Positions 8,057 to 38,794 are shown, counted from the first letter of the stretch. The stretch: DNA of 64,000 bases from Leptospirales bacterium (GCA_040326155.1 JBEQLE010000002.1:32001-96000); one strand, 5' to 3'. Program-made: numbers and translations. Notes: generated by a model from the sequence alone, not told the origin.

Positions 8057-8097
8057 TATTTTGATTTTAGTATGTCTGATTTATAGTTACGGTTATT

Positions 8098-8790
8098 ATG
8101 AAAATTTATCGAAAAGCAAGAAGTGTAATTAAAAGGTCGCTGGGATTAACATACCCGCCCGGGCTGGCTCATGAAAAGGTAGTCTCTGATGAATATAAAT
8201 TCATTTGGTTTCCCATACCTAAAGTGGCATCTTCAAGTTTAAGATTGCTTTATTATAACCACCCAGACATACATGATATTCAAGTATTAAACGTACCAAA
8301 CTCGAAAGTGAATCGGTTATATGGAGAATTTTACAAGTTTGCCTTTGTAAGAAATCCATGGGCCAGAGTGGTCAGTTGTTATAAAAATAAGATTTGCCAC
8401 CCGAATTATGATATGGTTAAACTATACTTTCGGTTTAAAGGTTTATATCATAATATGCCTTTTAAAGAGTTTGTCCATTTTTTGTTGGAAGGACCGGGTT
8501 CCGATCGAAAGGGTAATACCCATTGGATATCGCAACATAAATTTTTATATCATAAAGAAAATTGCCTGGTTGATTTTATAGGAAAATTTGAAAACTTAAA
8601 TGAGGATTATCTGAAAGTAATGAAACAGATTGGATTAAACGCTGCGGACCTTCCCTATGTCGACCCCGCCGGTAAAAGTAAAATAAAACATGATCCGTAT
8701 AGTTACCGGAAACACTATACCGATGAGACGAGAGATATTGTGGCAATGCGCTACGCCAAAGATATTGATTTGTTTTCTTACACCTTCTAG
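8098..8790 (+). CDS. Carbohydrate sulfotransferase (Sulfotransfer_2 type)
   Basis: 5'-PSB motif IPKVASSS, 3'-PB motif FVRNPWARVVS, plus HWISQ and GKFENL. Confidence 0.85.
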   Translation: MKIYRKARSVIKRSLGLTYPPGLAHEKVVSDEYKFIWFPIPKVASSSLRLLYYNHPDIHDIQVLNVPNSKVNRLYGEFYKFAFVRNPWARVVSCYKNKICHPNYDMVKLYFRFKGLYHNMPFKEFVHFLLEGPGSDRKGNTHWISQHKFLYHKENCLVDFIGKFENLNEDYLKVMKQIGLNAADLPYVDPAGKSKIKHDPYSYRKHYTDETRDIVAMRYAKDIDLFSYTF

Positions 8791-8821
8791 AGTACGTAAT
8801 TATTTTTATTGGAATACATCA

Positions 8822-9787
8822 ATGGTTCACAAGGCAGAAAATAAAATGGTATCAGTGATTATACCAACTTTTAATGATAGTTCGGATCGACTGTCCAGGT
8901 CAATATTCAGTGTTATCAACCAGACATATCGTAAAATAGAAATATTTATTATTGATGATGGTAGCAAACTGCCTTTTGCCGGTTTAAATAAAACAATAAA
9001 AGATAAAAGAATATCATGGCTGCCCTTGAAAAAAAACTCCGGAGTAGCCAAGGCAAGAAATCATGCGTTGACAAAAGCAAAAGGTAAGTACGTTGCTTTT
9101 TTAGATACGGGGGACTGGTGGGAAAAGGATAAGCTGTCGGAACAACTTAAAGTTTTTGCAAGTACGCAATTTAAAGATTGTATTCTTACGTACTCCGATG
9201 CACAAACTCACTTTCCAGATGGTTCTATTGGGAAGATGGTCGCGAAGAATAAAGGCCGCTTGTACCCGCAAGCACTCGTAAATGTTCCTGTTTCGGGCTC
9301 CTGCTCTTCAGCTTTGCTTTTAACGGAAGTGCTTCTAGGAGTCGGCGGTTTTTATGAATCGGAGGATATTCCGGAAGATAAAGAACTTTGGGTGCAGCTA
9401 TCGAAAGTCGGTTCTTTTGATTACATATCGAATTTATTAGTTCATATAGAAGTGCATTTGCCCTCTTCACGAAGTTTTTCTGCAGAAAAAAAGAAGAAAC
9501 CATACCTCAAATTTATCGAGTTACATGAAACTGAATTAAAAAGTTATCGATTATACAAAAAAGCTATTGCCAATTATCATGAGCAAATAGGCATGAAATA
9601 TTACCTTTCAGGTGATAATAAACAATCTATTGTAAATTGGTTAAAACGTATTTGTTACAATCCATCATTTACTTCCTTTTTGGATTTAATTATTTTGATA
9701 TGGTCGGCTCTTACCAAAAAGGAATATAGAGTCATTAGAAGCAAAGTATATAAAACAATCAATAAAATCCGTGGAAAGAAAATATAA
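8822..9787 (+). CDS. Glycosyltransferase family 2
   Basis: VSVIIPTFN, IIDDGS, ARNHA and FLDTGD. Start moved past the sulfotransferase stop. Confidence 0.85.
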   Translation: MVHKAENKMVSVIIPTFNDSSDRLSRSIFSVINQTYRKIEIFIIDDGSKLPFAGLNKTIKDKRISWLPLKKNSGVAKARNHALTKAKGKYVAFLDTGDWWEKDKLSEQLKVFASTQFKDCILTYSDAQTHFPDGSIGKMVAKNKGRLYPQALVNVPVSGSCSSALLLTEVLLGVGGFYESEDIPEDKELWVQLSKVGSFDYISNLLVHIEVHLPSSRSFSAEKKKKPYLKFIELHETELKSYRLYKKAIANYHEQIGMKYYLSGDNKQSIVNWLKRICYNPSFTSFLDLIILIWSALTKKEYRVIRSKVYKTINKIRGKKI

Positions 9788-9788
9788 A

Positions 9789-10916
9789 ATGAAGGTGTTA
9801 TATATTTTTAGAAAATGTCCGGTCAGTATAGGCCAAGGAGGTGTGATTATGCCGCCATATTTTTTGTCTAATAGAAACGGCTATCAAGTTGTTACAATAG
9901 CGCCCGAATGCGATAATAATAATGAAGTAACATTTCAATTTCCCGATAACGTATGTACTTATCATTACAACAAGGATATAAATCATTTTAGAAAAGTGCA
10001 ATTTATAATGAATATTCTCAAGCGGGAAAAGCCGGATATTGTTCATGTCTTTATCGCAAAATCATATTATTGGTTACCGGTATTCATATCCTTGTTTAAA
10101 TTTGGAAAAAAGGAAGAGGCATGGTTACTTGATATACAATCACCCGCGATAAGCCAGAAAAAAAAAGCTAAATGGAGATCATTGATAAAACCGATTAAAC
10201 AAATTGGTTACGATGCAGTGTGTACTCTTAACAGGGCTTCTGCCTTGTCCCATTTAGGACATATTTTTAAACCAGTTTTTATAGTTAGACTCGGTTATTC
10301 TCCAGAAATAAGCTGCAAGAAACTCAGTAAAAAAAATACCGAGGTCAAACCGGTAAAATTTCTATATATGGGTGCCATATCAAAAGCCAGGAAATTAGAA
10401 GGTTTGTTAGAATCAATATTGATTCTAAAGGAAAAATATCATATTACAAATGTAATTCAGTTTGACTTTTATGGAAATGGAGATTATGTTAATGAATTAG
10501 TTGACTTTGTAAAACAGAAAAAACTGATTAACATTGTTAAATATAAAGGCGTGCTATCATATGAAAATATAATTGTCAAGATGAAAGATTATGACGTCGG
10601 CTTTTCTTATCTGCCTATTAACACTTTTTATAACAAATCACCAGTTTCAAAAACTATCGAGTACATTGCTGCTGGTTTATATGTTATCGCCAGTAACACC
10701 TGGGCAAACCGAGAGATCATCGTTCATGGAAAAAATGGTTTACTTACTGACAATGATCCTGAGCAATTAGCGCAGGTAATTAACGATTTAATTACGAAGG
10801 GGATTAGTTCGAAATACATTCTCAATTCCGGTGATTTATTAAAAGAATACTCTTGGGAACATATTGTTCAATCCCAGTATATTCCCATGTACAAAAGTAT
10901 TCTTGAACATACATGA
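9789..10916 (+). CDS. Glycosyltransferase family 4
   Basis: KPDIVH, YMGAISKARKL and PVSKTIEYIAAG. Confidence 0.85.
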   Translation: MKVLYIFRKCPVSIGQGGVIMPPYFLSNRNGYQVVTIAPECDNNNEVTFQFPDNVCTYHYNKDINHFRKVQFIMNILKREKPDIVHVFIAKSYYWLPVFISLFKFGKKEEAWLLDIQSPAISQKKKAKWRSLIKPIKQIGYDAVCTLNRASALSHLGHIFKPVFIVRLGYSPEISCKKLSKKNTEVKPVKFLYMGAISKARKLEGLLESILILKEKYHITNVIQFDFYGNGDYVNELVDFVKQKKLINIVKYKGVLSYENIIVKMKDYDVGFSYLPINTFYNKSPVSKTIEYIAAGLYVIASNTWANREIIVHGKNGLLTDNDPEQLAQVINDLITKGISSKYILNSGDLLKEYSWEHIVQSQYIPMYKSILEHT

Positions 10917-11003
10917 ATTTTATATGAGATAAATTCGCAATCAGGTTTATTAAAAGAAATCAGCACAGCTTTACTTGCACCGATATTAAGGAAATATATT
11001 GCC

Positions 11004-12146
11004 ATGAAAAAAACAGCTCTAATTACAGGTGTCACCGGCCAGGACGGCGCCTATCTTTCAGAATTTCTATTGAATAAAGGTTATGATGTACACGGGATTA
11101 AAAGACGCAGTTCCCTGTTTAACACGGACCGAATCGACCACCTTTATCAGGATCCCCATGAGAGTAATGTAAAGTTTGCACTACATTATGGCGATATGAC
11201 TGATTCAACGAATTTACTTAGCATTATACAGAAGGTGCAACCTGATGAAATTTATAATTTGGCTGCGATGTCCCATGTTGCAGTTTCGTTTGAGACGCCT
11301 GAATATACGGCGAACGCGGATGGAACTGGTTCTTTGAGAATATTGGACGCTGTTCGTTTGCTTGGTTTAACTGAAAAAACCAGAATATACCAGGCCTCAA
11401 CCAGTGAACTGTATGGATTGGTGCAAGAAGTACCGCAAACTGAAAAAACACCTTTTTATCCACGCAGTCCTTATGCTGTGGCAAAGCTCTATGCTTACTG
11501 GATAACCGTTAATTATCGTGAAGCGTATAACATGTTTGCATGTAACGGAATTTTATTTAATCATGAAAGCCCGGTTCGAGGGGAAACTTTTGTAACTCGA
11601 AAAATTACCAGGGCTGCTTCAAAAATTTCATTGGGCCTTCAAGAGAAACTATTTCTGGGAAATCTTAATGCTAAACGAGACTGGGGTCATGCAAAAGACT
11701 ATGTGGAAATGATGTGGTTGATTTTGCAACATGATGCCCCCGAAGATTGGGTTATTGCTACTGGTAAAACTACCCCGGTTCGGGATTTTGTGAAAATGGC
11801 CTTTTCTTTTACTGGTATTGAACTGGAGTTTTCTGGTGAAGGGGTCGATGAGAAAGGTATTATCTCAAACATTGATGTCGATAAGTTCACTTCAGTAGTA
11901 GGTAAACCTCCAACCAGTTTATCACAAGGGCAAACGCTTGTTGAGGTGGATTCTCGTTATTTTCGACCCACTGAAGTGGATCTGTTAATTGGCGATGCTA
12001 CCAAGGCTAAAGAAAAACTGGGTTGGGTACCGAAATTTTCATTGGATGAACTTGTGACCGATATGATGAAATCGGATATTCATTTAATGAAAAAAGATAA
12101 GTATTTAGCGGAAGGCGGATTTGACATTCTAAATTATTATGAATAA
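11004..12146 (+). CDS. gmd: GDP-mannose 4,6-dehydratase
   Basis: [31 protein letters not shown] and [18 protein letters not shown]. Confidence 0.98.
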
Positions 12147-13185
12147 AAACAGTAAAATATACATAGCTGGACACGGCGGGCTGGTCGGCGGGGCCATTTT
12201 ACGTAATCTGCAAAGTCAAGGGTATGAAAACATAATTACCCGTACAAGCAAAGAGCTTGACTTGAAAAACCAGTTGGAAACGACACAGTTTTTTGAAGAG
12301 AATAAACCTGAATTTGTTTTTTTGGCAGCGGCAAAGGTCGGGGGAATTATTGCAAATAATATGTACAGAGGTGAGTTTATTTATGACAATATTCTCATTC
12401 AATCGAATGTCATTCACAATGCATATAAGAATTCGGTCAAAAAACTTTTGTTTTTAGGAAGTAGCTGTATTTACCCAAAGATGGCACCACAGCCGATGCC
12501 TGAAAACGCATTACTTACAGGTGAGTTGGAATATACGAATGAACCTTACGCGATAGCAAAAATTGCGGGTATAAAAATGTGTGAAAGTTATAATCTGCAA
12601 TATGGAACAAACTTTATTTCGGCGATGCCTACTAATCTGTACGGCCCAGGTGATAATTTTGATTTAGATAAATCACATGTTTTGCCAGCGATTGTTCGTA
12701 AGGTTTATCTTGCCAGTTTGATGAGAGAAAAAAAATATGATATAATACGCCAAGATCTGGCAGTTTCAACTGACGTGGAAGCGCGTCAAATATTGGATGA
12801 ACATGGGGTTTGTGCAAAGAAAATAACATTATGGGGTAGCGGAAGACCACTACGTGAGTTTTTGTGGTCAGAAGATCTGGCCAAGGCCTGTATATTCTTA
12901 ATGAACAGTGTCAATTTTTCGGATTTGAGTAAAAATATGAAAGAGGTTCGAAATACTCACATAAATATCGGGTCGGGTATAGATTTATCTATACGTGAAC
13001 TTGCTCATCTTGTTAAAGAGATAATTGGGTATACTGGAGATATTCTATTTGATGAAACCAAACCGGATGGCACACCACGGAAACTTACCGATGTCACAAA
13101 AATCCATAATTTGGGTTGGAGGCATAAAGTTGAACTTCCCGAAGGTATAGAAAAGTTGTATAATTTATATAGGGGTGATATTTAG
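12139..13185 (+). CDS. fcl: GDP-L-fucose synthase
   Basis: [29 protein letters not shown] and [11 protein letters not shown]. Follows gmd. Confidence 0.95.
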
Positions 13186-17394: not shown

Positions 17395-18378
17395 ATGAAA
17401 CTCCTGAAAATCCTTATCTCGGTCCTGGTTCTCGTATATCTGTTTTTTTTGATATCCTGGGAGCAGCTCTTACTGGCTTTGGAAAATTCGTCGCCAGGTT
17501 ATTACGTTTTTTCAGCTGCTATTGCAATGCTTGGTCCAATTGTTATGGGCCTGAAATATTATTATTTATTGAAAGGAACCGAGATACAAAAAAAAGCCGG
17601 TTTTATGGTGCGCGTAAATTACATCAGCAGGTACTATTCAATTTTACTTCCGAGCGGCGTGGGTCAACTGGCTGTTCGTTGGTACCAGGTCACCCGAAAT
17701 GAAACGGGCCGACTTCTCTTTTTCATGCTGAGCGTTTATGAACGAGTCTCTTTTATTTTGGTGGTGTGCATAATTTACTTCGCCACCGCCATGGTATATA
17801 AAAATGACAACAGGTTGTTTTTCAGCAGTGATTATGTCTTAACAGTTGTTTCTCTCGTACTTGCCTTTACAGTGGCGGTAATCCTGTATTTTAGATTAAA
17901 ATCTTTCCGAGCGCTGGTTTATAGACCGCTATCAAAGGTTTTCTCTTATGTACCTTTTGTTCACAAATTTTTCGAAAAAGTCAGCAAAAATGTATCCGAA
18001 GCCGCAGAAAAAACGATGGTTAATAATAAAAAAAATACCATTGAATCGATATTCAGTTTAATTTGGATATTGATATTTTTTATTAGATATTATTTCATTG
18101 CACAATCACTCCATCTAAATATCTCTTTTGTGGATATGTTTTTAGTCAGTATGGTGCTTATAGTTATCCAGATGCTGCCCATTTCGTTTTCCGGTGTCGG
18201 AGTCAGAGAGGGTGGTTTAATCCTCATGTACCAGACTCTGGGCGAAAGTCAGGAGGCAGCTGTATTAAGCGGTATAATGTTTTTCTCCCATATCCTTTTT
18301 ATTGCTTTATTCGGTATGGTGTTTTTGATACTCGGTAAATACGTTGATGGTAATGAAAAATCTAATATTACTGAATAG
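17395..18378 (+). CDS. Flippase-like membrane protein (lysylphosphatidylglycerol-synthase TM / UPF0104)
   Basis: Multi-TM protein with LPSGVG and LPISFSGVGVRE motifs. Confidence 0.8.
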   Translation: MKLLKILISVLVLVYLFFLISWEQLLLALENSSPGYYVFSAAIAMLGPIVMGLKYYYLLKGTEIQKKAGFMVRVNYISRYYSILLPSGVGQLAVRWYQVTRNETGRLLFFMLSVYERVSFILVVCIIYFATAMVYKNDNRLFFSSDYVLTVVSLVLAFTVAVILYFRLKSFRALVYRPLSKVFSYVPFVHKFFEKVSKNVSEAAEKTMVNNKKNTIESIFSLIWILIFFIRYYFIAQSLHLNISFVDMFLVSMVLIVIQMLPISFSGVGVREGGLILMYQTLGESQEAAVLSGIMFFSHILFIALFGMVFLILGKYVDGNEKSNITE

Positions 18379-18404: not shown

Positions 18405-20201
18405 ATGTACCTCGATAAATATAACAAATTTAATGATCTTGTTTTTTCCCGAAAGTATTTAACGTTTACTTTCGCCGTTGCCGTATCGATGCTGGTCGCA
18501 CTCTATAATCTTAATCTGAATTTCTCGAGAGATGGCCTGTTCTATTTATCCATGACCGTAGATCCTCAAGGGTTTAACAATATTCGGCCAGGGTATATTT
18601 TTTTCTCAAGTATTTTTAATTCATTTATAACAGATCCATTATATTCTGCCATTGTATTTCAAACCGCTCAGGAATTTATTTTTTTTCTATGTCTGACTTT
18701 ATTTTTTCTTGTTCAACGAAATATTACGGGACTATTGATTTCGCTGGTGTTGGCAACATTTTCCTCATTCCATTTTAAGATATACACGCACTTCCTGATT
18801 GACAGTTTTGTAGCAACACAGGCCTCCGCAGTACTTTTGAGTGCATGGGTGTATTATTTTCGGAAGCCCTCCAAGACTATAAAATATACATCTCTGATAC
18901 TGTATACGGCCGTATTGCCGGTTATTGCTGCTCTGGGCAAGCCGTTGGTTATAAGCATTTACGTTGGCGTTCTTTTCTACGTAGTTTTAGAAATTATTTA
19001 CGATCGTATAAAAAATGGTAAATTCAAGAATTTGCAAAACTTTTTGTTCTCTTTAATTCCAATTATAATAATTATTGTCTTAATTAAAATCAGCTCTTCC
19101 GAGCGAGCGGTTGGTAAACATTCATCAAATGTTTTAGAATATTACCAGTCGGTGCTATCTGCGGGTTCAATCTCTCAGTTATTCAAACCTGTAATAAATT
19201 TTTTTCATTCTTATATTATTGAAATTTTCGGTACGGTCCAAATATTTATTTTGCCTGTAATCTTGTTAATTATTGCCTCCTTTAAATCAAAAAAGTCTCG
19301 GTTTTTTCTTTGTATTCTTGCAGGACATCTGCCTATAGTTTTTATCCTGGGCACTTCTGGCCTCCGGGCGGGCCAGGCAGTTACACTGTTTGTAAGCTGG
19401 GTTTTTATGTTTGGTTTCGTCGCTGTGGAAACCTATAATCAGTGGAAGCCGAAACTCGAGAAGTTGAGTAAAAACCAATCTCGTTGGGGGGGAGCTTCTT
19501 TAATCTTGATATTAATTTTATTTCTACCAGGTTCGAAGTTCGATGGGAGGATATTGTCGAGAGCTAAACCGTTTACCGTCTCAAGTAAATTGTTGAAAGT
19601 TAAAGAAAATCTTTATCAATTGGATATGGCGGATAATACCGTAATTTATTACGATTATCCGATTGCGCCATACCTTAAGTCTTTTACAAAAGTGTATTCA
19701 AAAGGTTTCAAACATTTTACATCCATGTATCGGGTGGACAATGTCTCCTTAAAAGAAAATGCGCCGGAAAATTATGTTACCCCGGGTATTCTTTTTCAAA
19801 AATGGTGGCCAAACAGTGAGAGTCAGAACCTGTTGTACTTTAGAGGTCAATCGCCCAGGCACGAGACATTTTTCATAGATTTATGTAAGTGGAATGATCG
19901 TTCAAATATTGGTGATATTGTAGTTTTGCATAAGAGTAGGTGGAAGCATCTTGTTCCGATCTTAGAAAAACAATTTGCACTAATAAAAGTAAATGAGTTT
20001 ACGGGCTTCAACGTTTATAAAATTCAGAAAAAAAGGGAGTGTCTCGTTCAAGGAAATTTATTGATTCATAATAGTATTGCCAAAACAGTGCGTAAGAACG
20101 CAATTTACGATTTCAGTCAAATGAATGGATTTAAAAATAACGGTTGGGAAGAGTTTAAAAATCTCTCTTTTTCCGGTTATTATACCGTCCCGCTACGATA
20201 A
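18405..20201 (+). CDS. Polytopic membrane protein, probable GT-C glycosyltransferase
   Basis: About 11 TM helices, an early loop RDG...RPGY and a C-terminal soluble domain. Lies beside the GT2 and flippase genes. Confidence 0.55.
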   Translation: MYLDKYNKFNDLVFSRKYLTFTFAVAVSMLVALYNLNLNFSRDGLFYLSMTVDPQGFNNIRPGYIFFSSIFNSFITDPLYSAIVFQTAQEFIFFLCLTLFFLVQRNITGLLISLVLATFSSFHFKIYTHFLIDSFVATQASAVLLSAWVYYFRKPSKTIKYTSLILYTAVLPVIAALGKPLVISIYVGVLFYVVLEIIYDRIKNGKFKNLQNFLFSLIPIIIIIVLIKISSSERAVGKHSSNVLEYYQSVLSAGSISQLFKPVINFFHSYIIEIFGTVQIFILPVILLIIASFKSKKSRFFLCILAGHLPIVFILGTSGLRAGQAVTLFVSWVFMFGFVAVETYNQWKPKLEKLSKNQSRWGGASLILILILFLPGSKFDGRILSRAKPFTVSSKLLKVKENLYQLDMADNTVIYYDYPIAPYLKSFTKVYSKGFKHFTSMYRVDNVSLKENAPENYVTPGILFQKWWPNSESQNLLYFRGQSPRHETFFIDLCKWNDRSNIGDIVVLHKSRWKHLVPILEKQFALIKVNEFTGFNVYKIQKKRECLVQGNLLIHNSIAKTVRKNAIYDFSQMNGFKNNGWEEFKNLSFSGYYTVPLR

Positions 20202-25670: not shown

Positions 25671-26114
25671 AGTAATTTGCAATCCAATCTCCTTTGGCTT
25701 GATTCGTCTTAAAGCGAAATCAACTTTATGAATTATTTCCTGAATATTTAAACCGTTTCTAATTTGAACAATCGAATGAATACTGATCTCGATAGTTACG
25801 ACTAGACCGTGTATCCTGTAATGATTATTTGATTTAGTGCGCATGGTAACCCTTGCATCGCTGTTTCATGGGCAATGGATATTACCGGAAAAACCTGGCC
25901 GTAGAATATCTTTTTCCGGTTTACGAAAAATTGGTCTCTTCTCAGTGAATATGAAGTTTGGAACCAATGAATAAAATAGACTTAAAAAATAAATCGCTCC
26001 TGGTTGTTGTCAACCACCATTTGCTCTATAATGGGACTAGCTACTACTCTTCGAATTCACTGTTCTTTAAGTTTTTGAATCAGTTGTATCGATAGCCTGA
26101 ACCACGATCTTGTT

Positions 26115-26823
26115 TTATAAGTTCTGTTTCAGAAGTTTAAGAACATAAGGCATATAATAAGCGCGACCATTATCATTTAAATGAGCTTGGTCTGCAAAAT
26201 AAATATCATTTTTAATAAGCATGTTTTCGGGAATTCGTATATGAGCTAAATTCATATATTTCTCTTCCAGCTCTGCCATTTTTTTGTTAATAACAGGGTT
26301 ATACTGGGGTTGGGGTAAATCCAGAATGATCAGTTTAATTCCTTTTTGTTCACATAACAAGTACAACTCTTCGAGTAAATGGAAACTTATGTCCGTCCAA
26401 TTCTGGTCGGAAGTTATCGATTTTTTTTCTTTGTAGCTGATTTGACCAAGCTTGTTTTGTTAAATCATCCCACGTTTCCGTGCGAACTTTATTTCGATAT
26501 CTTTTCTTGTTTTGTGGCATTACCTCTGTGTTGTGCGGCAAGTTTTGAGACTTAGCATATGGAAAATTTCGTTTTATAAATTTAGTGGAACTTTTTAGAT
26601 AGTATATATACGGATTTATTAGCCGGACTATTTTGTAGGATAGTTTAATATCGTCTTTTTTCAATCCGTATAATTCCGTGAATCTATTTTGCCTCAAATT
26701 GGGTATATCTTTTGAACTTTTTTCCGGTGTTTGTTCTTTTTGTCGAGTGGTTGTTTTATAGAGGTAAAAAACAAAAGATGAAAATAATAGAAATATGAAA
26801 ACATGAATGACAGTAGATAACAT
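26115..26823 (-). pseudogene. Internally deleted, frameshifted paralog of the SGNH/DltD-like gene at 31349-32545
   Basis: Shares INPY, YRNKVR, LYLLCEQKG, IILDLPQ, YFAD..HLND.GRAYY.PY with 31349-32545. Split across two frames near 26400-26460. The GGSS block is missing. Confidence 0.8.
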
Positions 26824-26976: not shown

Positions 26977-28377
26977 ATGAATACCGTTGTTAAAATTATA
27001 GGTCTAGTCGGTTCCATTCGTTCAAACCACAATCATTTGGATGAGCTTTCTCAGATCATCCATGTGTCTGCAGATCTTGATACGCTTTTGAAAAACATCA
27101 AGGCTTGCCCTCATGTGTTTTCAAATACCGATATTGCTGTAGCAGCAGCACTCATGGGGGCAAAAAGTAACGGCGCCGCCGTTGAAATTATTTCTCTCGT
27201 TGATTTGTTCCGCCACCGGAGCGAAGATTTATACAAAGAACTGGATAGCTTTGCGACGATCGATGATCTTGATGAAATTGACACGTTATCCATTAATGAT
27301 AAAGCCCTTGTTTCGATTATGCAATCCCTGACAGAGTGTCATGGTATCATCCTCGGGTCTCCCGTTTATTTCGGAGATCGTTCTTCGGTCGCGAATAAAA
27401 TTCTTCAACTGACCGGTAAATCTGATATTTTGAAAGATAAAGCTTTTGGGTCGGTTGCCACCGGTGCGAAGCGAAATGGGGGTCAGGAGACGACAATTAT
27501 TTACACGCTATACGAAGCCATCCTTCAAGGAGCAGTTGCCGTGGGCAATGGGCCAAAAACAGCTCAGTACGGTGGGACCGTATATGCCGGCGATGTCGGT
27601 AAGGCCGTTGAAGACGTCTTCGGTATGGATACCTCTTTTGGAACGGGTCGTCAGGTCGCGCAGCTGGCAAAAATTATTCAAGCCGGTACGATCAGTCCGG
27701 CAAAGCGAAAACCCAAAACCCTGTTTTTAGTAACTATGGACAATGCCGAAAAAAAATATCAGAAAACTCTGGAAGATTATATTAAAAAGCAAAAACATGA
27801 GTTTGACCATGAAGTTGTTAACCTGACTACGGAAAATATTTATCGGTGTATTGCCTGCAGTGCCTGTCCCTCGCCTGCTTTAACCGAAAAGTATAAAGAT
27901 CAGGAAAATCCATATACTTGTGTCGTCCAAACTTCGAAAGATAATATGAAGTATCTGCGGGAAAAAATGGTAGATGTCGACGTTATCGTTCTAGTTGGAG
28001 TAAATACCAATGAACCGCTTACATATCGCTACCAGGCTTTTATGGAGAGGACCAGGTTTATACGACGTAACGATTTCGAGCTTACGAATAAAATTATTCT
28101 GAGTTTAAATATTGAGGAAGTCGGGGCGACTAAGAACAATATTTTTGACGTTAAGGCAATTACGTCTTTTATTCGTCATAATACCGTCATTGTGAAACCG
28201 TTACAGTTGATTTTTCACAAGGGTAAAATTCTGGTAGAACCTGATTTCGCAGAATATTTCCCCATTTTTGATAAAATTGTAAATGGACGTTTTGAAATCG
28301 ATCCTTTTGAAGTGAGTTATAAAGCGACAGGGTATGATAACAAAACACTGGACCATACTGCGGCAATCCGAAGGTAA
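26977..28377 (+). CDS. Tandem-domain flavodoxin-like / iron-sulfur flavoprotein (Isf-like)
   Basis: Domain 1 has GSIRS, GSPVYFG and RNGGQETT. Domain 2 has CIACSAC...C. Confidence 0.75.
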   Translation: MNTVVKIIGLVGSIRSNHNHLDELSQIIHVSADLDTLLKNIKACPHVFSNTDIAVAAALMGAKSNGAAVEIISLVDLFRHRSEDLYKELDSFATIDDLDEIDTLSINDKALVSIMQSLTECHGIILGSPVYFGDRSSVANKILQLTGKSDILKDKAFGSVATGAKRNGGQETTIIYTLYEAILQGAVAVGNGPKTAQYGGTVYAGDVGKAVEDVFGMDTSFGTGRQVAQLAKIIQAGTISPAKRKPKTLFLVTMDNAEKKYQKTLEDYIKKQKHEFDHEVVNLTTENIYRCIACSACPSPALTEKYKDQENPYTCVVQTSKDNMKYLREKMVDVDVIVLVGVNTNEPLTYRYQAFMERTRFIRRNDFELTNKIILSLNIEEVGATKNNIFDVKAITSFIRHNTVIVKPLQLIFHKGKILVEPDFAEYFPIFDKIVNGRFEIDPFEVSYKATGYDNKTLDHTAAIRR

Positions 28378-28381
28378 TTGT

Positions 28382-28504
28382 TTAGAAACCCATATAACGA
28401 AACGGGCGAAAACCGGCATTTTTCATGAGTACAACGATGAGAACTACCCAGTATAAGATAGAAAAAAGAAATCCGTAAAACAATGACCTGAATAATAATT
28501 TCAT
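28382..28504 (-). CDS. DltX-like 40-aa membrane peptide (not in the ORF track)
   Basis: Manual translation gives MKLLFRSLFYGFLFSILYWVVLIVVLMKNAGFRPFRYMGF*. It has a GGAG RBS right after the MBOAT stop, one TM helix and a C-terminal FxYxxF motif. Confidence 0.85.
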   Translation of the reverse strand: MKLLFRSLFYGFLFSILYWVVLIVVLMKNAGFRPFRYMGF

Positions 28505-28513
28505 AGTTTCTCC

Positions 28514-29728
28514 TTAATTAAACAGAATTGCAAACGCGTAAGAATACAACTTTACTACAACCTGAAAATCGTGTACGGCTACCATCACAAACACAAATGA
28601 AACAAAATATATTGTAATTATATTACCGGTAATGCGCAGGAACAATGCGCCTGCCTTGTTGTTTTTCATCCGTTTAAACCATCTCATTTCCCGAATTTTA
28701 CCGTAAAAGTTGATTCCAGTTGCATGTAATATTGCCCAGGTTATCCAGTTTAATGTTAATGCGTGCCATATTCCGATGGTCAACATGCTCAGGTAGGTCG
28801 ATATCCAGGCTTTTTTAGTTTTAATTAAGGCTGGAAAAAAAACATAGTCTCGTGTCCAGTTTGATAAAGACATGTGCCACCTTTGCCAGAACATGGAAAG
28901 GTTGCTTGCCAACAGAGGTTTGTTAAAATTTTCCTGATGGGTAAAACCCAGTAATTTAGAAAAAGATTTACTGATTTCCGTATACAACATTAAATCGAAG
29001 TAGGCATGGATGAAAGCGCTAAAACCAAAAAGTGAGAGTTTCAGAAAAAACAAATGGTCTTTCCCACTATCCATATTTTGCATTAGTAAAGGTAACGTTT
29101 TCTCGTATGTGTATTGGTATAAATAATTATCGATAAGCAAAAATTTCACACTTATGGCGGTAAATAGTAAAAGGTAAATATTACGACGGGGCTTTCCGGA
29201 AAACTGTGTTTCGAGATATTTAAAGTCACGAAATCTTTGAATAGGGCCGGCCAGTATTATTGGGAAGAAAAAGACGTATGAATAATAATCTATCGGGTTT
29301 ATATTTTCGAACTCCTTCGGACGATTCGCATAATCAATCATCATCGATAATAACCTGAAATAGTAATAAGAGACGCCTAAAGGTATATATGGATTTTCAA
29401 TGTTCAGAAAATACTGGTAATCTTTTATCAGTAACAAGAGCCCGATGGAGCATAAGACAAACAGAGATAACTTTTTTTTAATCTGTATTTTTTTGTATAT
29501 AAGAATATAAACAATGGTTGATAATAACAGCAGTTGAAAAAATGACCCTACGTCGAGCCAGATTAGAAGTCCACCGGAGATGATAATGATAAGGGACTTT
29601 TTTTTATGGATATTTTCATTTTTAAAAGACCATTCAAGAAAAATGATAATAGATATTACAATAATGATAAAAAAGATTATAAGGTTATCGCCCAGAAAAT
29701 CTGCAATTTCTAAAATAGTTTCCAGCAT
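28514..29728 (-). CDS. MBOAT O-acyltransferase (DltB/AlgI-like)
   Basis: PLGVSYY, AGPIQR, ENFNKP, FWQRWHMSLS and catalytic GIWH. Confidence 0.93.
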   Translation of the reverse strand: MLETILEIADFLGDNLIIFFIIIVISIIIFLEWSFKNENIHKKKSLIIIISGGLLIWLDVGSFFQLLLLSTIVYILIYKKIQIKKKLSLFVLCSIGLLLLIKDYQYFLNIENPYIPLGVSYYYFRLLSMMIDYANRPKEFENINPIDYYSYVFFFPIILAGPIQRFRDFKYLETQFSGKPRRNIYLLLFTAISVKFLLIDNYLYQYTYEKTLPLLMQNMDSGKDHLFFLKLSLFGFSAFIHAYFDLMLYTEISKSFSKLLGFTHQENFNKPLLASNLSMFWQRWHMSLSNWTRDYVFFPALIKTKKAWISTYLSMLTIGIWHALTLNWITWAILHATGINFYGKIREMRWFKRMKNNKAGALFLRITGNIITIYFVSFVFVMVAVHDFQVVVKLYSYAFAILFN

Positions 29729-29734
29729 AATTTT

Positions 29735-31075
29735 CTATAACGGTTTTAAGTCTTTTAAAAGCCGACCAATTTCCTTTCTATCAATTTTCATCGTCTGGGT
29801 AAAAGGAAAATTTTCCATGGTGTAATATTTATGCGGCAACTCGTTATTTTCAAGTTTACCCTTAAGTTTTTTAATAAGTTCTGAGCGTCCTATTCCGCAA
29901 TCTCCTTCAAACACAAGGCAGATTAAATTTCCCAAGGTGGGGTGTTCCTGCGGGACCACAGCGATGCCGGTCTCGGGAAAAATTTCCGTTACCTTGCCCT
30001 CGATGTGTTTCAAAGAGACTTTATTGCCCCCGACTTTTATTTCATCGTCGCTTCGACCTGCCAGGACCATCACCCCATGGTCTGTTTTAACAATGTCGCC
30101 AGTTGCATGCCACTGTATGGATTTGTCAAAAATGCCGTTGCGAATATATCCCTGGAACAGGAAATCTGACTTTACGTACAACTGCCCTTCTCTGGTCTCG
30201 TACTCCATTCCCTCTATGCAATTGCCGATTCCGTCAATAAGTTCGGGAGCCATCGACGAGTTTACCGGTTGAATAAAAAAGCGACCACCGAGTTCGGCCA
30301 GCCCGTAGACTTTGAAAAAAACAGCTTCGGGAAATTTTGACAGAATACTTGTGATGGAATTTTTATAAATAAAATCTCCGGATGTAAAAAAGAATGCCGG
30401 TTTATAATTCGGTTTGATTTTCGCCAGCGACATTAGTATGTGCATGGGAGAACCCAAAATGGAACAATTTTCATTTTTTTCCAGTATTTCGGGAAGAGAA
30501 TCAATATGATCGAAATCGGAAAAAATTAAAAAACTTTCGGTAATATAATGAACAAGAAAATGACTCAATGCACTCATCAGGTAAGGTTTAAGCATGGTAA
30601 TTCCGGTGAAACCCGAAAGGCCCATCGCGCTTGCCGTTTCTCTGGCATTGTCAAAAAAGTGTTTTTTTACATGGACAATCCCTTTGGGGGTTCCCGTGCT
30701 TCCGGATGAAAAGATGATGGTATCAAAATCTATTTTTTCCATTGCCTCGACTTCCGTGAAATCGGGGTTTTCAGTGATTTGAATTTTTTCATCATTGTAT
30801 TGTATAACGTGAGTGTAGTGTGGAAATATTTTTTTTCCCTGAAAGTGATCTCTTGTCGGGAAAATGACTTTGGCATCGGCTTTCCACGCGGCAAATAATA
30901 TTGTATATAACTCTATTGGGTTTTCAGTGGCGATTAAATAAAAACGTTCGGGAGCCGACGGTATGGCTCCGGTCAATAGGTTGACACGTTCGGAAAACTC
31001 GGTGTCAGTCATCGATGTATCACGATACTGAATCAGTTTCCGGTTTTCGTGTTTGCTTAACAGTTGATCAAGCAT
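29735..31075 (-). CDS. Adenylate-forming enzyme (ANL family; DltA position)
   Basis: FSSGSTGTPKG, YGLAE, TGD, GRSDDEIKVGG and TMKIDR. Confidence 0.9.
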   Translation of the reverse strand: MLDQLLSKHENRKLIQYRDTSMTDTEFSERVNLLTGAIPSAPERFYLIATENPIELYTILFAAWKADAKVIFPTRDHFQGKKIFPHYTHVIQYNDEKIQITENPDFTEVEAMEKIDFDTIIFSSGSTGTPKGIVHVKKHFFDNARETASAMGLSGFTGITMLKPYLMSALSHFLVHYITESFLIFSDFDHIDSLPEILEKNENCSILGSPMHILMSLAKIKPNYKPAFFFTSGDFIYKNSITSILSKFPEAVFFKVYGLAELGGRFFIQPVNSSMAPELIDGIGNCIEGMEYETREGQLYVKSDFLFQGYIRNGIFDKSIQWHATGDIVKTDHGVMVLAGRSDDEIKVGGNKVSLKHIEGKVTEIFPETGIAVVPQEHPTLGNLICLVFEGDCGIGRSELIKKLKGKLENNELPHKYYTMENFPFTQTMKIDRKEIGRLLKDLKPL

Positions 31076-31328
31076 TGTTATTATTCAACTTGGTTTCAAG
31101 ATAATCGACGATACGATTCACCGTTCCGAGTGTATCAAGTGTAAGGTCGAAAGGGTCGATCGATATGGAAAACTCAGTTTCCATGAACATGATAACCTGC
31201 AGAACATTGATTGAATCGAGAAAGTCATTTTTAAATATTTCTTCATCAACACTTGTCAGTGTTTTTCCAGCGAGAGTTTCCACCTCTCCTTTTATTTTGT
31301 TTATTAGTTTCGCTCTTTCTATGGCCAT
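31068..31328 (-). CDS. Acyl carrier protein (DltC-like)
   Basis: 86-aa acidic protein with an FLDSI phosphopantetheine site and an E.EF.I.I pattern. Confidence 0.88.
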   Translation of the reverse strand: MAIERAKLINKIKGEVETLAGKTLTSVDEEIFKNDFLDSINVLQVIMFMETEFSISIDPFDLTLDTLGTVNRIVDYLETKLNNNNA

Positions 31329-31348
31329 TTTATACTCTCTGTTTTATT

Positions 31349-32545
31349 TTAATTCCCAAGCAGGGGTTTTAGTGACTTTACTATATAAGGAAAATAATAG
31401 GCACGACCTTGATCATTCAAATGGTTTGTATCCGCAAAATAATTTTGATTTCCTTTCATCATGTACGGTGGTATTTCGATATGGACTATGTTATTATATT
31501 TATTTTCCAGATTTTTCATCTTTGCCATAATCAAACTACTTTCATTGCGTTGGGGCAGATCGAGAATAATGAATTGATACCCTTTTTGCTCGCATAACAA
31601 ATAGAGTTGTTCAAGAAAATAAAAGTTGATTTCTATAGACCGGCGCACTATCTCTTTTTTCTCCTCGCTATTCCTCCCTTTCTTGTGTTTTTTGCGCTTT
31701 AAAGATGTTGGTCGAACTTTATTGCGATATTCCTTCATGTTTTGTATAATAGGACGCTCATCATGGAATAAATTATTCAGTCCTGTTCGATTCAATTTCC
31801 ATTTAACAAATATGATTGCATCCTTAAGTGCATATACGTATGGATTGATTTTAGCGGCAAATCGATAAGAAAACTTTGGCTTGTTCCCATGGTTCCCGTA
31901 TTTGTTTTTATAATCTTCCATTACTTCAAGTACTTTATTCGATTCTAAAAAATAAGGATAATCACTGCCGTTCAAATAATTTACTTTGGATATTCTGCTT
32001 TCTTCGAGAGCCGAGAATTTTCCAGCGCGAAATACATATACGATGACACTACCTGGCGTTTCAATTTGATCAACTATGCGTATCGTACCTAACAATTGTT
32101 GAGAATGGCTGCCCAGGTTTATGGTTTTAATACCGAGTTGCTTGCTGACAATCTTGTCATTTTGGAAATATTCTCTGGCAGAAGATCCGCCTAAAGTATA
32201 GATTGCCCGTTTATTAATTCTATTTTGTTCTAGGAGTTTCTTCATTTGATAATTGAAAAACCTCCTCCCCTCGCTAGGGGTGAGCCTAGACTCAGGGTTC
32301 TCGATGAAAGCTGCAAACATAGCGGAATTATAATTATGGAATAGACCCATTTCAGTCAGGAAAAAGACAAGAGAAATTGTACCGGTTAAAACTGTGGAAA
32401 TAATTCTTCTTTTTGAATTTCTTTCTTTTTCGCGATTATTAACGTCTATTTCCGATGCAACATTTTCTTTACCAAACCGATAATACAGGTAGACAACGAA
32501 AAAGATGAAAGTTGTAAAAAGTAAAGTTTGAAATATGAAATTCAT
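31349..32545 (-). CDS. Membrane-anchored SGNH-like acyltransferase (DltD/AlgJ-like)
   Basis: Two N-terminal TM helices, LGGSS (catalytic Ser), INLG and DTNH (DxxH). Confidence 0.75.
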   Translation of the reverse strand: MNFIFQTLLFTTFIFFVVYLYYRFGKENVASEIDVNNREKERNSKRRIISTVLTGTISLVFFLTEMGLFHNYNSAMFAAFIENPESRLTPSEGRRFFNYQMKKLLEQNRINKRAIYTLGGSSAREYFQNDKIVSKQLGIKTINLGSHSQQLLGTIRIVDQIETPGSVIVYVFRAGKFSALEESRISKVNYLNGSDYPYFLESNKVLEVMEDYKNKYGNHGNKPKFSYRFAAKINPYVYALKDAIIFVKWKLNRTGLNNLFHDERPIIQNMKEYRNKVRPTSLKRKKHKKGRNSEEKKEIVRRSIEINFYFLEQLYLLCEQKGYQFIILDLPQRNESSLIMAKMKNLENKYNNIVHIEIPPYMMKGNQNYFADTNHLNDQGRAYYFPYIVKSLKPLLGN

Positions 32546-36355: not shown

Positions 36356-38794
36356 TTACCAGGCATAAGAGACGCTCAAACGGTAAGAACGACCGATGAC
36401 CATCTCTAAAGCGTTGCGCCATTTTTCATCTTTTATTGTATGTTCAGCAATTTCGCTGCGCGAATCCAGTAAATTATAGATATCAAAATATATACCCAGC
36501 CTTTTATTGTTTATGACTTTGTCAAACGACAGCCGTACATCCCATGTCAAGGCGTAAGTGAAGCGCGGCATACCCAGCGGAGGTTGAGAACGTTCCATAT
36601 TTTGCACAACAGTTGGCCCTTGCGATAAACCTTCGGCAATAACCATCTCCCCAAAAGGTTGGCCGTCACGATAACGCAATACATTGGTAAGGGCCAGTTC
36701 CCTGAAAAAGCGAAACCCGAAAATAAAAGTTGATACATAAGCACGGTCAAAATCGGTTCTGGCTCTTGTGTTCAATTTACTGTTCGGGTCCGCGCTTGAT
36801 TCGGAAATTGCTCCCATGTCGTTGTAGTCCGGGCCGTTACCCTGCACTGTTACCGCCTCTGAGTAAAAAGCGCCGACAGTAAAGTTTAAAAACCATGGCG
36901 ATTTCGGATTCGAATATTTTAGAGCTTGAAATTGAATAGCAGCATAATAACCGTTACTTGTTTCGTTGTCGAGTTTGTAACGTTCTGTTCCAAATGCATC
37001 GGGGTCTCTGTTGTAAAGTTTTCCCCCTTCGATTCCGGAACGGGAAATAGAGTAATATCCATCGTCATAATTTGTGGGAAAATTTACTGTATAAAGATTT
37101 CGAAATATTTTCCCATGGGCTGAGAGAGCAAGGTCAAATTGAGGGGTTGCATGAAAAGTCGACCGCAGGTATAATTCTTCTTTTTGAGGAGTTTTAAGGT
37201 CGGAAACTTTGGAGTGATAGATGCCACCGGTTCTGTTGATTTTTGTTCCTGCTTCAGATTTTTTCGCTATCCCGTCTCCGTTATCGTTCCAGAAATATCG
37301 TCCACCTGACGGAGACCCCGGGTTTAAAAAAGTCACCTCGCTCATTGTCAAGGGGACCGCATCGTGTAAAAAACCAGCCTGTAAAGTCCACTTCCTCAAT
37401 TTTCCGATAATATCTATGCCGCCGGTAGGGGCGAGCCTGGTAATTAAAATACTCGTTTCGCCTGAGCCTGTTTCAAACATAGCGCCCGCATTTACATTCA
37501 AGACCCATTTAGCCCAGTTTTTAGTTACCGTAGCTGTTGGATACAACCGTGTAATAAATTGCGAATAAGCGCCGTTATGATCGTAAATAGTCATATCGTG
37601 ACTTTGGTCTTTGTAGGTTCGGGCAAAAACTCCCCCGGCATATAGTGGTTCGGCTGTTGTGCCTTCTATACGAAGATTCAGACTTGCCAATAAGGGCATT
37701 CCGAAAACTTTTGCCACATTATTTTTTTCCGCTTCGGTGCCTACAAACCAGCCAATAAGATTTTCCGGTACCGGGGCTTTTCCATATAAAACTTCGTCGG
37801 TTAAACCCCACACCATAATTTCCGGGTTGTTTTGTTCATAACGAGAATAATAATAACCTGAGTTCATACCAAGATCCCAACCCTTGCGTTTGCCAAACCA
37901 ATCGCCATAAAGTGAGTGTTCACCCCCGTTTGTAGCCAGAGAGGAGTCAAAACCTGTTTCGATCTGTGCATAGTCGCGCATGGTTCCCTGGTAAAACAGG
38001 TTCATTTTGTCCCCGTTTTTCAGTTCTCGGGATGCATATACGGAATTTCGATACCCGGCTTCATAATCATTTAAATTTGTAAAAGTTCTTTTGTGAATAA
38101 TTCCTTCATAAAATAAAAAAACAGGTTTATCATTTGGAGTATCCAGCGCGTAAAAAACATCGCCTTCCAGGGCAAACCCGAATCGTCGTCTTTTGGGGTC
38201 GGCGCCCCAGGACTGGGCCGGCTCTCGGTCGAATGTGCTTGTTCCCATCCAGGAGTCGCCTCCTAAAAAACCGGGGTTGCTCAGACTCACTCTATTCGGG
38301 TTTTTTTCTGGTTTCAGTATCCAGTTTATTCCCTGTAGGTTGGAATATGGGGTAAGAACCGATTGCAAGGCAAGTGCCTGCCAAAGGTGTTGCGGCACAT
38401 AAATCAAAGAAGTTCCAGGTACCGCTGGGTTTGTTACATCTTGCCCATTAATATAATATTTTTGCCAAAGGCTCGACTCTCCCCGGACGGCGATATTTTG
38501 CCTTTCCAGCATCGAGAATCCACCGGCATCGGGGTTCGATAATATAACAGGAGGAAACCAGTATTCAAGAAGCGACCCTACGTGTTTTCCGTTTGGTAAA
38601 AATAAAACATCTTCCTGTTTAAAAACAGGATCGGGCAGAGTCCACTCGCCGACGTTTAGAAAAATGTCATCGTCCTCTTGTACTAAAGGCTCTTTTTCAA
38701 CGTCGTCTTTCGCTGAGAGCGGAAGGTTTCCAAAAAAAGCGAAAATGATCGCAGAAACAATAAAAAATATCGGCTTGTATGCAGTTCTTTTCAT
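36356..38794 (-). CDS. TonB-dependent-receptor-like outer-membrane beta-barrel
   Basis: Signal peptide, plug-like IAVRG...YYINGQDVT, DIYNLLD, and C-terminal GRSYRLSVSYAW (aromatic end). Confidence 0.75.
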   Translation of the reverse strand: MKRTAYKPIFFIVSAIIFAFFGNLPLSAKDDVEKEPLVQEDDDIFLNVGEWTLPDPVFKQEDVLFLPNGKHVGSLLEYWFPPVILSNPDAGGFSMLERQNIAVRGESSLWQKYYINGQDVTNPAVPGTSLIYVPQHLWQALALQSVLTPYSNLQGINWILKPEKNPNRVSLSNPGFLGGDSWMGTSTFDREPAQSWGADPKRRRFGFALEGDVFYALDTPNDKPVFLFYEGIIHKRTFTNLNDYEAGYRNSVYASRELKNGDKMNLFYQGTMRDYAQIETGFDSSLATNGGEHSLYGDWFGKRKGWDLGMNSGYYYSRYEQNNPEIMVWGLTDEVLYGKAPVPENLIGWFVGTEAEKNNVAKVFGMPLLASLNLRIEGTTAEPLYAGGVFARTYKDQSHDMTIYDHNGAYSQFITRLYPTATVTKNWAKWVLNVNAGAMFETGSGETSILITRLAPTGGIDIIGKLRKWTLQAGFLHDAVPLTMSEVTFLNPGSPSGGRYFWNDNGDGIAKKSEAGTKINRTGGIYHSKVSDLKTPQKEELYLRSTFHATPQFDLALSAHGKIFRNLYTVNFPTNYDDGYYSISRSGIEGGKLYNRDPDAFGTERYKLDNETSNGYYAAIQFQALKYSNPKSPWFLNFTVGAFYSEAVTVQGNGPDYNDMGAISESSADPNSKLNTRARTDFDRAYVSTFIFGFRFFRELALTNVLRYRDGQPFGEMVIAEGLSQGPTVVQNMERSQPPLGMPRFTYALTWDVRLSFDKVINNKRLGIYFDIYNLLDSRSEIAEHTIKDEKWRNALEMVIGRSYRLSVSYAW

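Follow-up and report, generated by a model that had tools for sequence, protein, structure and literature searches.

What does a set of genes resembling the dlt operon of Firmicutes do in a bacterium with an outer membrane? The question is raised by a 64,000-nucleotide stretch from a Leptospirales bacterium (GCA_040326155.1, JBEQLE010000002.1:32001-96000; here called the window), in which five tightly coupled minus-strand genes were originally predicted to form a complete DltD-C-A-B-X pathway attached to a sulfated-glycan locus. We found all five open reading frames (ORFs) where they had been placed, together with the motifs read in them: GGSS at residues 119-122 and DTNH at residues 372-375 of a 398-amino-acid (aa) protein, DSI at residues 38-40 of a carrier protein and GIWH at residues 319-322 of a membrane-bound O-acyltransferase (MBOAT). 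A carrier protein, an adenylase, a DltB-like MBOAT, a DltD-fold SGNH protein and a DltX-like peptide can all be recognized, in agreement with the proposed architecture. The limit of five genes did not hold, as a sixth member, a 466-aa flavoprotein, accompanies them in 12 of 15 informative loci. We consider it likely that the six genes constitute a horizontally mobile, carrier-protein-dependent envelope acylation cassette that is Dlt-like in its working and not a Dlt orthologue. The gene set, the folds, motifs and invariant residues, the co-conservation and the exchange of the flavoprotein for a ComA/ComB pair at sister loci are observed here. The six genes are:

31349-32545, minus strand: predicted DltD-like membrane-anchored SGNH acyltransferase, 398 aa (AlphaFold2 (AF2) fold and invariant Ser/Asp/His)
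31068-31328, minus strand: acyl/peptidyl carrier protein, 86 aa (PP-binding; S39 in the DSI motif)
29735-31075, minus strand: short ANL-superfamily adenylating enzyme, 446 aa (AMP-binding)
28514-29728, minus strand: short DltB-type MBOAT, 404 aa (MBOAT; DltB-only matches)
28382-28504, minus strand: DltX-like microprotein, 40 aa (C-terminal FRYMGF)
26977-28377, plus strand: tandem flavodoxin-like (WrbA/FMN_red-type) protein, 466 aa (FMN_red; four invariant cysteines)

From the SGNH gene to the microprotein gene along the minus strand, a gap of 20 nt is followed by an overlap of 8 nt and then by gaps of 6 and 9 nt. An AGGAG ribosome-binding site lies 5 bases ahead of the ATG of the 40-aa ORF. 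The flavoprotein gene is convergent with the five-gene operon, and 4 nt separate the two stop codons. A promoter and terminator scan says little about transcription here, with 36 promoter-like sites against 25.3 +/- 5.6 expected. The same genome encodes LpxC (286.8 bits) and Omp85 (146.6 bits), which bears out the earlier view of the organism as a diderm.

The 398-aa protein matched no Pfam family in a scan of the window ORF, so the claim that it is an SGNH protein was tested through structure. A word-indexed homologue search recovered the protein itself and one relative (53% identity), and an exhaustive HMMER search of 1.84 billion proteins yielded 31 representatives at E<=1e-3, 14 of them at <=1e-10 and 2 at <=1e-30. 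We aligned 26 of the 31, after dropping short fragments and two proteins of more than 1100 aa. G119, S121, P331, D372 and H375 are invariant across these 26 sequences, and S121/D372/H375 are the putative catalytic triad. The AF2 model built from this alignment (predicted local distance difference test (pLDDT) 85.3; predicted template modelling score (pTM) 0.83) has two N-terminal helices, with a K/R-rich linker between them read from the sequence, followed by the catalytic domain. The top three Foldseek matches in the PDB are all DltD (7dxm, E 8.6e-5; 3bma, 4.0e-4; 6o93, 5.1e-4). In VIA-align, many SGNH esterases matched with Z 12-13 (177-184 aligned residues) and PatB with Z 10.8; DltD 6o93, at Z 12.4, could be aligned over the greatest length, 264 residues. 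The protein, searched as a single sequence, had no match in the PDB. The family aligned by hhalign to a paralogue from a second cassette in this genome (97.2% probability, E 4.6e-11), and that paralogue clears the Pfam DltD cut-off (25.0 bits against 22.7). AF2, Foldseek and VIA-align thus agree with the predicted SGNH identity, and the modelled protein fits a DltD-family membrane-anchored SGNH fold with a Ser-His-Asp set.

The carrier protein just passes the PP-binding cut-off (20.9 bits against 20.8), and its orthologues adjoin the adenylase in related loci. The adenylase scores 43.4 bits for AMP-binding (cut-off 29.9) and belongs to a family of short proteins, 441-466 aa. It retains the ANL core motifs SSGSTGTPKG, YGLAE, TGD and GRSDDEIKVGG and an invariant A10 lysine, K430, and should therefore be active.

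The MBOAT scores 48.5 bits in Pfam (cut-off 27). Its sole NCBIfam match is DltB TIGR04091 (E 4.3e-36; 124.9 bits, below the equivalog cut-off of 375), and its sole PDB sequence matches are also DltB (8jem, 6.1e-19; 6bug, 1.1e-18). H285 (RWHMSLS) and H322 (GIWH) are invariant in the family. Among 5.8 billion protein clusters, the protein falls in a tight clade of ~46 other proteins that are 40-82% identical to it; beyond this clade identity drops to <=34%, mostly to MBOATs of ~470 aa. According to the excerpted account of these pathways (PMC12148441), DltB moves D-Ala from DltC to the invariant Tyr of the FXYXXF 'acyl shuttle' motif of DltX, and in other bacterial MBOATs this motif is fused, on two extra helices. 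None of 26 aligned members of the clade carries F.Y..F in its final 40 residues. The 40-aa microprotein consists of a single hydrophobic helix and then the hexapeptide F35-R36-Y37-M38-G39-F40 at its C-terminus. The C-termini of two long MBOATs encoded elsewhere in the genome (487 and 471 aa) read FIYAQF and FIYFQF. A short MBOAT without the motif next to a separate FRYMGF peptide, with the motif fused in the long MBOATs, is the split predicted by the published model, as far as it is set out in that excerpt (PMC12148441).

The microprotein has no match in Pfam or NCBIfam. A small ORF ending in FRY[MI]GF is present in all 12 loci whose contig spans the region, and F35, R36, Y37, G39 and F40 are invariant across the 12 sequences. 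Chance matches to the strict pattern do occur (one unrelated ORF in locus L037), but an identical hexapeptide in all 12 loci is not due to chance. A complex prediction for the MBOAT and the microprotein scored 0.01, which speaks neither for nor against binding. By fold, histidines, sequence and lack of a fused motif, the MBOAT fits the DltB type, and the microprotein appears to be of the DltX type.

To place the cassette among its relatives, we retrieved loci that encode close relatives of the MBOAT, six from GTDB genomes and ten from metagenomes; L039 duplicates L009. The GTDB metagenome-assembled genomes (MAGs) are labelled Bacteroidetes, Desulfobacterales, Bdellovibrionales (two) and Desulfovibrionaceae (two). 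With the window there are 16 distinct close-clade loci (L008-L013, L035-L038 and L040-L044), which were compared by tblastn with the window proteins, a motif scan and one hhalign alignment. All six genes lie on one contig in eight of them (window, L009, L010, L011, L013, L035, L037 and L038); in the remaining loci the contig stops short or the ComBA variant described below is present. The adenylase, carrier protein, SGNH protein, MBOAT and microprotein co-occur wherever the contig allows, as expected of the pathway that had been predicted. With F for the flavoprotein and Dlt letters for the others, the gene orders elsewhere are F-X-C-A-D-B, F-X-C-A-B-D, X-C-A-D-B-F and C-A-D-B-F-X, as compared with D-C-A-B-X in the window.

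Conservation of the flavoprotein is strong, with a mean column identity of 55% over 11 sequences. It matches FMN_red (58.5 bits, cut-off 24) and does not reach the WrbA equivalog (31 bits against 141). Conserved motifs are GSIRS, PVYFGDRSS and GAKRNGGQETT, and four cysteines are invariant (C291-x2-C294-x2-C297 and C315). The AF2 model (pLDDT 79.4) contains two flavodoxin-like domains, of which the N-terminal one matches flavodoxin, WrbA and ArsH (Z 18-19) and the C-terminal one (residues 246-434) KefF and a quinone reductase (Z ~11). The tandem domain and the four cysteines set the 466-aa protein apart from WrbA- and iron-sulfur flavoprotein-like FMN_red proteins. As it has no N-terminal hydrophobic segment, the flavoprotein should be cytoplasmic.

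Twelve loci carry the flavoprotein (window, L009, L010, L011, L012, L013, L035, L036, L037, L038, L043 and L044). In three others (L008, L040 and L042), the slot after the MBOAT holds homologues of 2-phosphosulfolactate phosphatase (ComB) and phosphosulfolactate synthase (ComA). The ComA homologue scores 271.8 bits for Pfam ComA and 224.2 bits for NCBIfam TIGR03849 (cut-off 280). A protein of the vicinal oxygen chelate (VOC)/glyoxalase type is encoded next in L008 and L040; the L042 contig stops within the phosphatase gene. Over the 15 loci with sufficient flank, the flavoprotein and ComB/ComA are thus found 12 and 3 times, respectively, and never together (L041 is too short). The clearest comparison is between L037, with the flavoprotein, and L040, with ComB-ComA-VOC, whose adenylases are 89%, SGNH proteins 91%, MBOATs 87% and carrier proteins 95% identical. 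The two loci are otherwise syntenic, with genes for a UDP-sugar dehydrogenase, a GFO/IDH/MocA oxidoreductase and a hexapeptide acyltransferase upstream and a DegT aminotransferase (98% identical) downstream. This exchange beside core genes that are 87-95% identical suggests, on positional grounds, that one acid, or two similar ones, is supplied by the flavoprotein at some loci and by ComBA at others. No ComA match was detected in the window's genome, which is 94.7% complete.

The cassette is spread across at least four phyla outside the Firmicutes, including Bacteroidota, Desulfobacterota and Bdellovibrionota MAGs, and is rare. A genome search found the 398-aa protein in none of 60 relatives. 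Among 400 other genomes of the phylum, the SGNH profile gave weak C-terminal matches alone in 31 (E 1.6e-13 or weaker), and in four of five such genomes that were checked a long MBOAT lies within ~2 kb. The flavoprotein profile found no full-length match in 400 other genomes, 9 of which contain single-domain proteins of ~200 aa; the window's own genome, as positive control, gave two matches. Transposase genes lie beside or inside the cassette at two loci (ISL3 at L012:1066-1809 and IS110 at L044:1994-3229). The scattered phyla, the absence from sampled relatives in the phylum and the transposases suggest horizontal transfer.

How might such a cassette work? We infer each chemical step, the acyl group and the acceptor as follows. 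In the cytoplasm, the 446-aa adenylase would activate a small carboxylic acid and load it as a thioester onto the phosphopantetheine of Ser39 of the 86-aa carrier protein. The four-cysteine tandem flavodoxin-like protein would make or tailor this acid, a role that phosphosulfolactate synthase and phosphatase would take at the sister loci. The short MBOAT would then pass the acyl group from the carrier protein across the inner membrane to Tyr37 in the FRYMGF tail of the microprotein. From this tyrosine, the SGNH/DltD-fold protein (Ser121, Asp372, His375) would take the acyl group and esterify a periplasmic acceptor, most likely a sulfated, nonulosonate-containing O-antigen or capsule-like glycan of the surrounding locus.

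The choice of acceptor follows from the genomic context. The window cassette stands at the end of a glycan locus of more than 25 kb (1-25670, plus strand) that encodes three sulfotransferases, at least seven glycosyltransferases, methyltransferases, epimerases/dehydratases, a deacetylase and an LPG_synthase_TM-type membrane protein (17395-18378). Upstream of the window, the same contig encodes DegT aminotransferases, WbqC, NeuB, a cytidylyltransferase and an AT3-SGNH acyltransferase. At other loci we identified WbpA/B/D/E-like (L037 and L040), GT4 (L010) and heparinase-like (L013) genes. That cassettes lie among sugar-nucleotide or glycosyltransferase genes at several loci makes a glycan the most likely acceptor. 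The same relay could instead serve a membrane lipid, lipid A or core, or peptidoglycan, which we regard as unlikely. The acceptor of an SGNH protein is unreadable from sequence, and this alternative gains from the LPG_synthase_TM-type protein in the locus, from the carrier protein of the second cassette, whose best NCBIfam match is an ornithine-lipid carrier protein (46.3 bits, cut-off 130), and from L035, where the neighbouring genes, for an HD-GAF protein and for cobalt transport, have no relation to the cassette. Weighing against it are the sugar-nucleotide or glycosyltransferase neighbours in the window, L008, L010, L013, L037, L038 and L040, and the presence of two cassettes within one large glycan locus of this genome.

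It had also been stated that no teichoic-acid genes are visible in the window. An ORF at 2-1141 (plus strand, open at its 5' end) gives a borderline match to the TagF-type family Glyphos_transf (CDP-glycerol glycerophosphotransferase; 21.9 bits against 22.1), and the statement needs to be corrected to that extent. Judged from this match, the glycan may contain a phosphodiester-linked unit and offer a teichoic-acid-like acceptor.

For the acyl group, D-alanine has to be considered. An ordinary D-alanylation system acquired by a diderm would place it on lipopolysaccharide (LPS) or another anionic polymer, as has been suggested for Dickeya and Pectobacterium. We think this quite unlikely, although the best single-sequence PDB match of the adenylase is DltA (7vhv, E 5e-16), the best NCBIfam match of the carrier protein is DltC (NF003464), the MBOAT matches DltB alone, a DltX-type motif is present and dlt genes are described, in the parts of the reports considered, from Gram-negative soft-rot bacteria (PMC5541007, PMC3544676). 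The resemblance to Dlt claimed at the outset stands for the architecture and does not extend to orthology, as the DltA, DltB and DltC equivalog scores are all missed by a wide margin. The DltC match of the carrier protein reaches 29.6 bits against a cut-off of 68. The adenylase scores 55.2 bits (cut-off 559.85) and 60.1 bits (cut-off 476) with the DltA models tested (NCBIfam TIGR01734 and NF003417), lower than its best match, MenE (81.5 bits), which is itself far under its cut-off. When the adenylase profile was compared with the PDB, adenylation domains of non-ribosomal peptide synthetases (NRPSs) came out on top, and DltA (7vhv, 2.6e-28), Cfl and MenE were also matched.

In the NRPS specificity code, the Asp of the FDxS (A4) motif binds the alpha-amino group of the substrate. 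When the adenylase was aligned with gramicidin synthase by hidden Markov model (HMM), with low confidence in this part, V/M167 took the position of the FSFDGS Asp; it belongs to the invariant adenylase stretch LKPYL[VM]SALSH, which contains no Asp. This and the association with ComA/ComB speak for an acid that is not an amino acid. In addition, the cassette contains no racemase, and its obligatory partner, the flavoprotein or the sulfolactate-making pair, would not be needed for D-alanine. The acyl group is therefore probably not D-alanine. A concrete candidate in the ComBA loci is 3-sulfolactate, which is possibly also the acid of the window's cassette. We put forward as a tentative and rather doubtful proposal that the cassette attaches an anionic sulfo- or hydroxy-acid by an ester bond to the surface glycan of a Gram-negative bacterium, 3-sulfolactate being the lead candidate. 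That this acid is supplied by ComA/ComB or, at most loci including the window, by an unrecognised route dependent on the four-cysteine tandem flavoprotein is equally speculative.

It is very unlikely that the cassette makes or exports a small secondary metabolite, a flavoenzyme-tailored, carrier-tethered acid on which the MBOAT and the SGNH protein would act in place of the envelope: an adenylase, a carrier protein and a redox enzyme do form a common natural-product module, and NRPS domains head the PDB matches of the adenylase profile, but the cassette has no condensation, thioesterase or ketosynthase gene, lies in a context of glycan genes, and includes a microprotein, a DltB-type MBOAT and a membrane-anchored DltD-fold protein, which in the excerpted account are parts of a trans-membrane polymer acylation relay (PMC12148441).

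Several points count against the cassette as we propose it. The case is built from sequences and predicted models. Foldseek TM-scores of the SGNH model to DltD are 0.35-0.40, and by VIA-align plain SGNH esterases match the model as well as DltD does. The window SGNH protein has no Pfam DltD match, only one of its 26 relatives scored (E 2.9e-4), and the best PDB sequence found with the family profile had an insignificant E of 0.3. The argument from the lack of an amino-binding Asp comes from one low-confidence stretch in an HMM alignment to an NRPS domain. The exchange between the flavoprotein and ComBA speaks to position and not to function, and is seen at three ComBA loci, of which L008 and L040 are closely related. 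In the window the flavoprotein gene, being convergent, is not co-transcribed with the operon. The acceptor is inferred solely from gene neighbourhood, and L035 has no glycan genes within 5 kb downstream.

Among known systems, the cassette is most readily compared with DltXABCD of Firmicutes, with which it shares an adenylase, a carrier protein, a short MBOAT without a fused motif, a separate FxYxxF microprotein and a DltD-like SGNH protein. It differs in falling widely short of the curated Dlt equivalog thresholds, in its gene order (D-C-A-B-X here and variable in related loci), in an adenylase ~50 residues shorter than the DltA profile lengths of ~500 residues, in the lack of an amino-binding Asp at the position aligned with low confidence, and in having a flavoprotein or ComB/ComA module as an integral part. 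Its hosts are diderms, and its context is glycan genes and not teichoic acid. The dlt genes of Dickeya and Pectobacterium confer resistance to antimicrobial peptides, probably via LPS modification, according to the portions of the reports considered (PMC5541007, PMC3544676). These too are Dlt-type genes in diderms that are thought to modify a surface polymer; compared by description alone, they are homologues of Gram-positive D-alanylation genes (dltBAC plus dltD/pbpG), and the excerpts do not mention a flavoprotein partner. With this precedent, the mere presence of a dlt system in a diderm is no novelty.

In PatA/PatB and other MBOAT-SGNH acetylation pairs from Gram-negative bacteria, as in the cassette, the MBOAT would acylate the tyrosine of an FXYXXF motif and the SGNH protein transfer the group to a polymer; the pairs differ in using acetyl-CoA as donor, in lacking a carrier protein and adenylase and in having the hexapeptide fused to a longer MBOAT, as given in the excerpted account (PMC12148441). 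With its separate microprotein and its carrier protein, the cassette does not belong to this type, which is represented by the genome's own two long MBOATs. AlmEFG of Vibrio cholerae likewise uses a Dlt-like pair of adenylase and carrier protein to modify a Gram-negative envelope, but adds glycine to LPS by means of an LPLAT-domain transferase and not an MBOAT, and the part of the report considered makes no mention of an SGNH protein or a microprotein (PMC3783018).

Other MBOAT/SGNH pathways lack both a similar carrier protein and a DltX-like microprotein, as described in the excerpt of PMC12148441, whereas the cassette has both. In a limited set of literature we found no paper on this gene combination or on sulfolactate on O-antigen. 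What is new is a second, non-Firmicute family that keeps a carrier protein and a separate acyl-shuttle microprotein and adds a flavoprotein or ComA/ComB partner; an acyl group other than D-Ala is implied. Interest in the cassette lies mainly in the flavoprotein/sulfolactate lead, as this partnership suggests that a new acyl group decorates the surface glycans of bacteria and that a conserved flavoprotein family has an as yet unassigned function. The compact six-gene system also bears on how acyl-tyrosine shuttles match donors and acceptors. If a sulfo- or hydroxy-acid is indeed transferred, the cassette would be a charge-adding counterpart of D-alanylation. Among relays of the Dlt type, having both a carrier protein and a separate acyl-tyrosine microprotein, it would also be the first for which transfer of a group other than an amino acid is shown.

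The second, diverged cassette of this genome lies on the same contig, ~6-12 kb before the first base of the window (L051:7917-14764, equal to G000:C94:19917-26764, L051 being G000:C94:12001-32000). Its genes, in L051 coordinates, are:

7917-8159: carrier protein
8156-9229: DltD-family protein (the paralogue that clears Pfam DltD)
9226-10404: MBOAT, 392 aa
10382-10534: microprotein, 50 aa (ends in FRYEGF)
10538-10942: methylmalonyl-CoA-epimerase-like VOC protein (107.3 bits, cut-off 114.95)
10943-12427: adenylase, 494 aa
12448-13848: flavoprotein, 466 aa
13925-14764: PhyH-type dioxygenase

Comparison of the two cassettes gave identities of 57% for the flavoproteins, 37% for the MBOATs, 33% for the carrier proteins and 28% for the adenylases; the SGNH proteins can hardly be aligned. 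It is thus the flavoprotein that is best conserved, while the donor- and acceptor-specific parts diverge.

Next to the flavoprotein gene, the window contains one further related feature:

26115-26823, minus strand: degraded partial duplicate of the DltD-like gene (two overlapping frames, 157 and 83 aa)

By BLASTP, this fragment is 59% identical to the 398-aa protein over residues 314-393 and 35% identical over residues 216-299. We rejected it as a working second SGNH gene, because the half with the catalytic serine is missing and stops interrupt the match, and it probably does not function. A 45-aa remnant at 25958-26095 (plus strand) corresponds to the beginning of a 408-aa ORF, of which the close relative L043 has an intact copy (2304-3530). 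From these remains, the region 25958-26823 looks like a rearrangement scar.

Other MBOAT loci were seen along the way. Genomes G045, G052, G056 and G059, of the same class, have 9-11 long MBOAT genes each (~470-520 aa), and G138, of the same phylum, has two; some of these genes adjoin weak SGNH/DltD-like matches. These sets are an unusually large collection of MBOAT-SGNH pairs, presumably of the acetyl-CoA type. A different MBOAT locus architecture occurs in Bacillota- and Actinomycetota-labelled MAGs (L014, L015, L023, L025, L026, L028 and L030), where carrier-protein-like and AMP-ligase-like ORFs, judged by eye, flank a 548-553-aa MBOAT ending in FIYREF or FIYRGF, and a 365-412-aa protein is also present. 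As read from their ORFs, these loci would represent a carrier-protein-fed MBOAT with a fused motif.

Elsewhere in the window, no Pfam family was matched at E<=0.001 by an 812-aa ORF (36356-38794, minus strand) or a 598-aa ORF (18405-20201, plus strand). The window also contains two very large ORFs, of 1994 aa (50260-56244, minus strand) and 1547 aa (58122-62765, plus strand).

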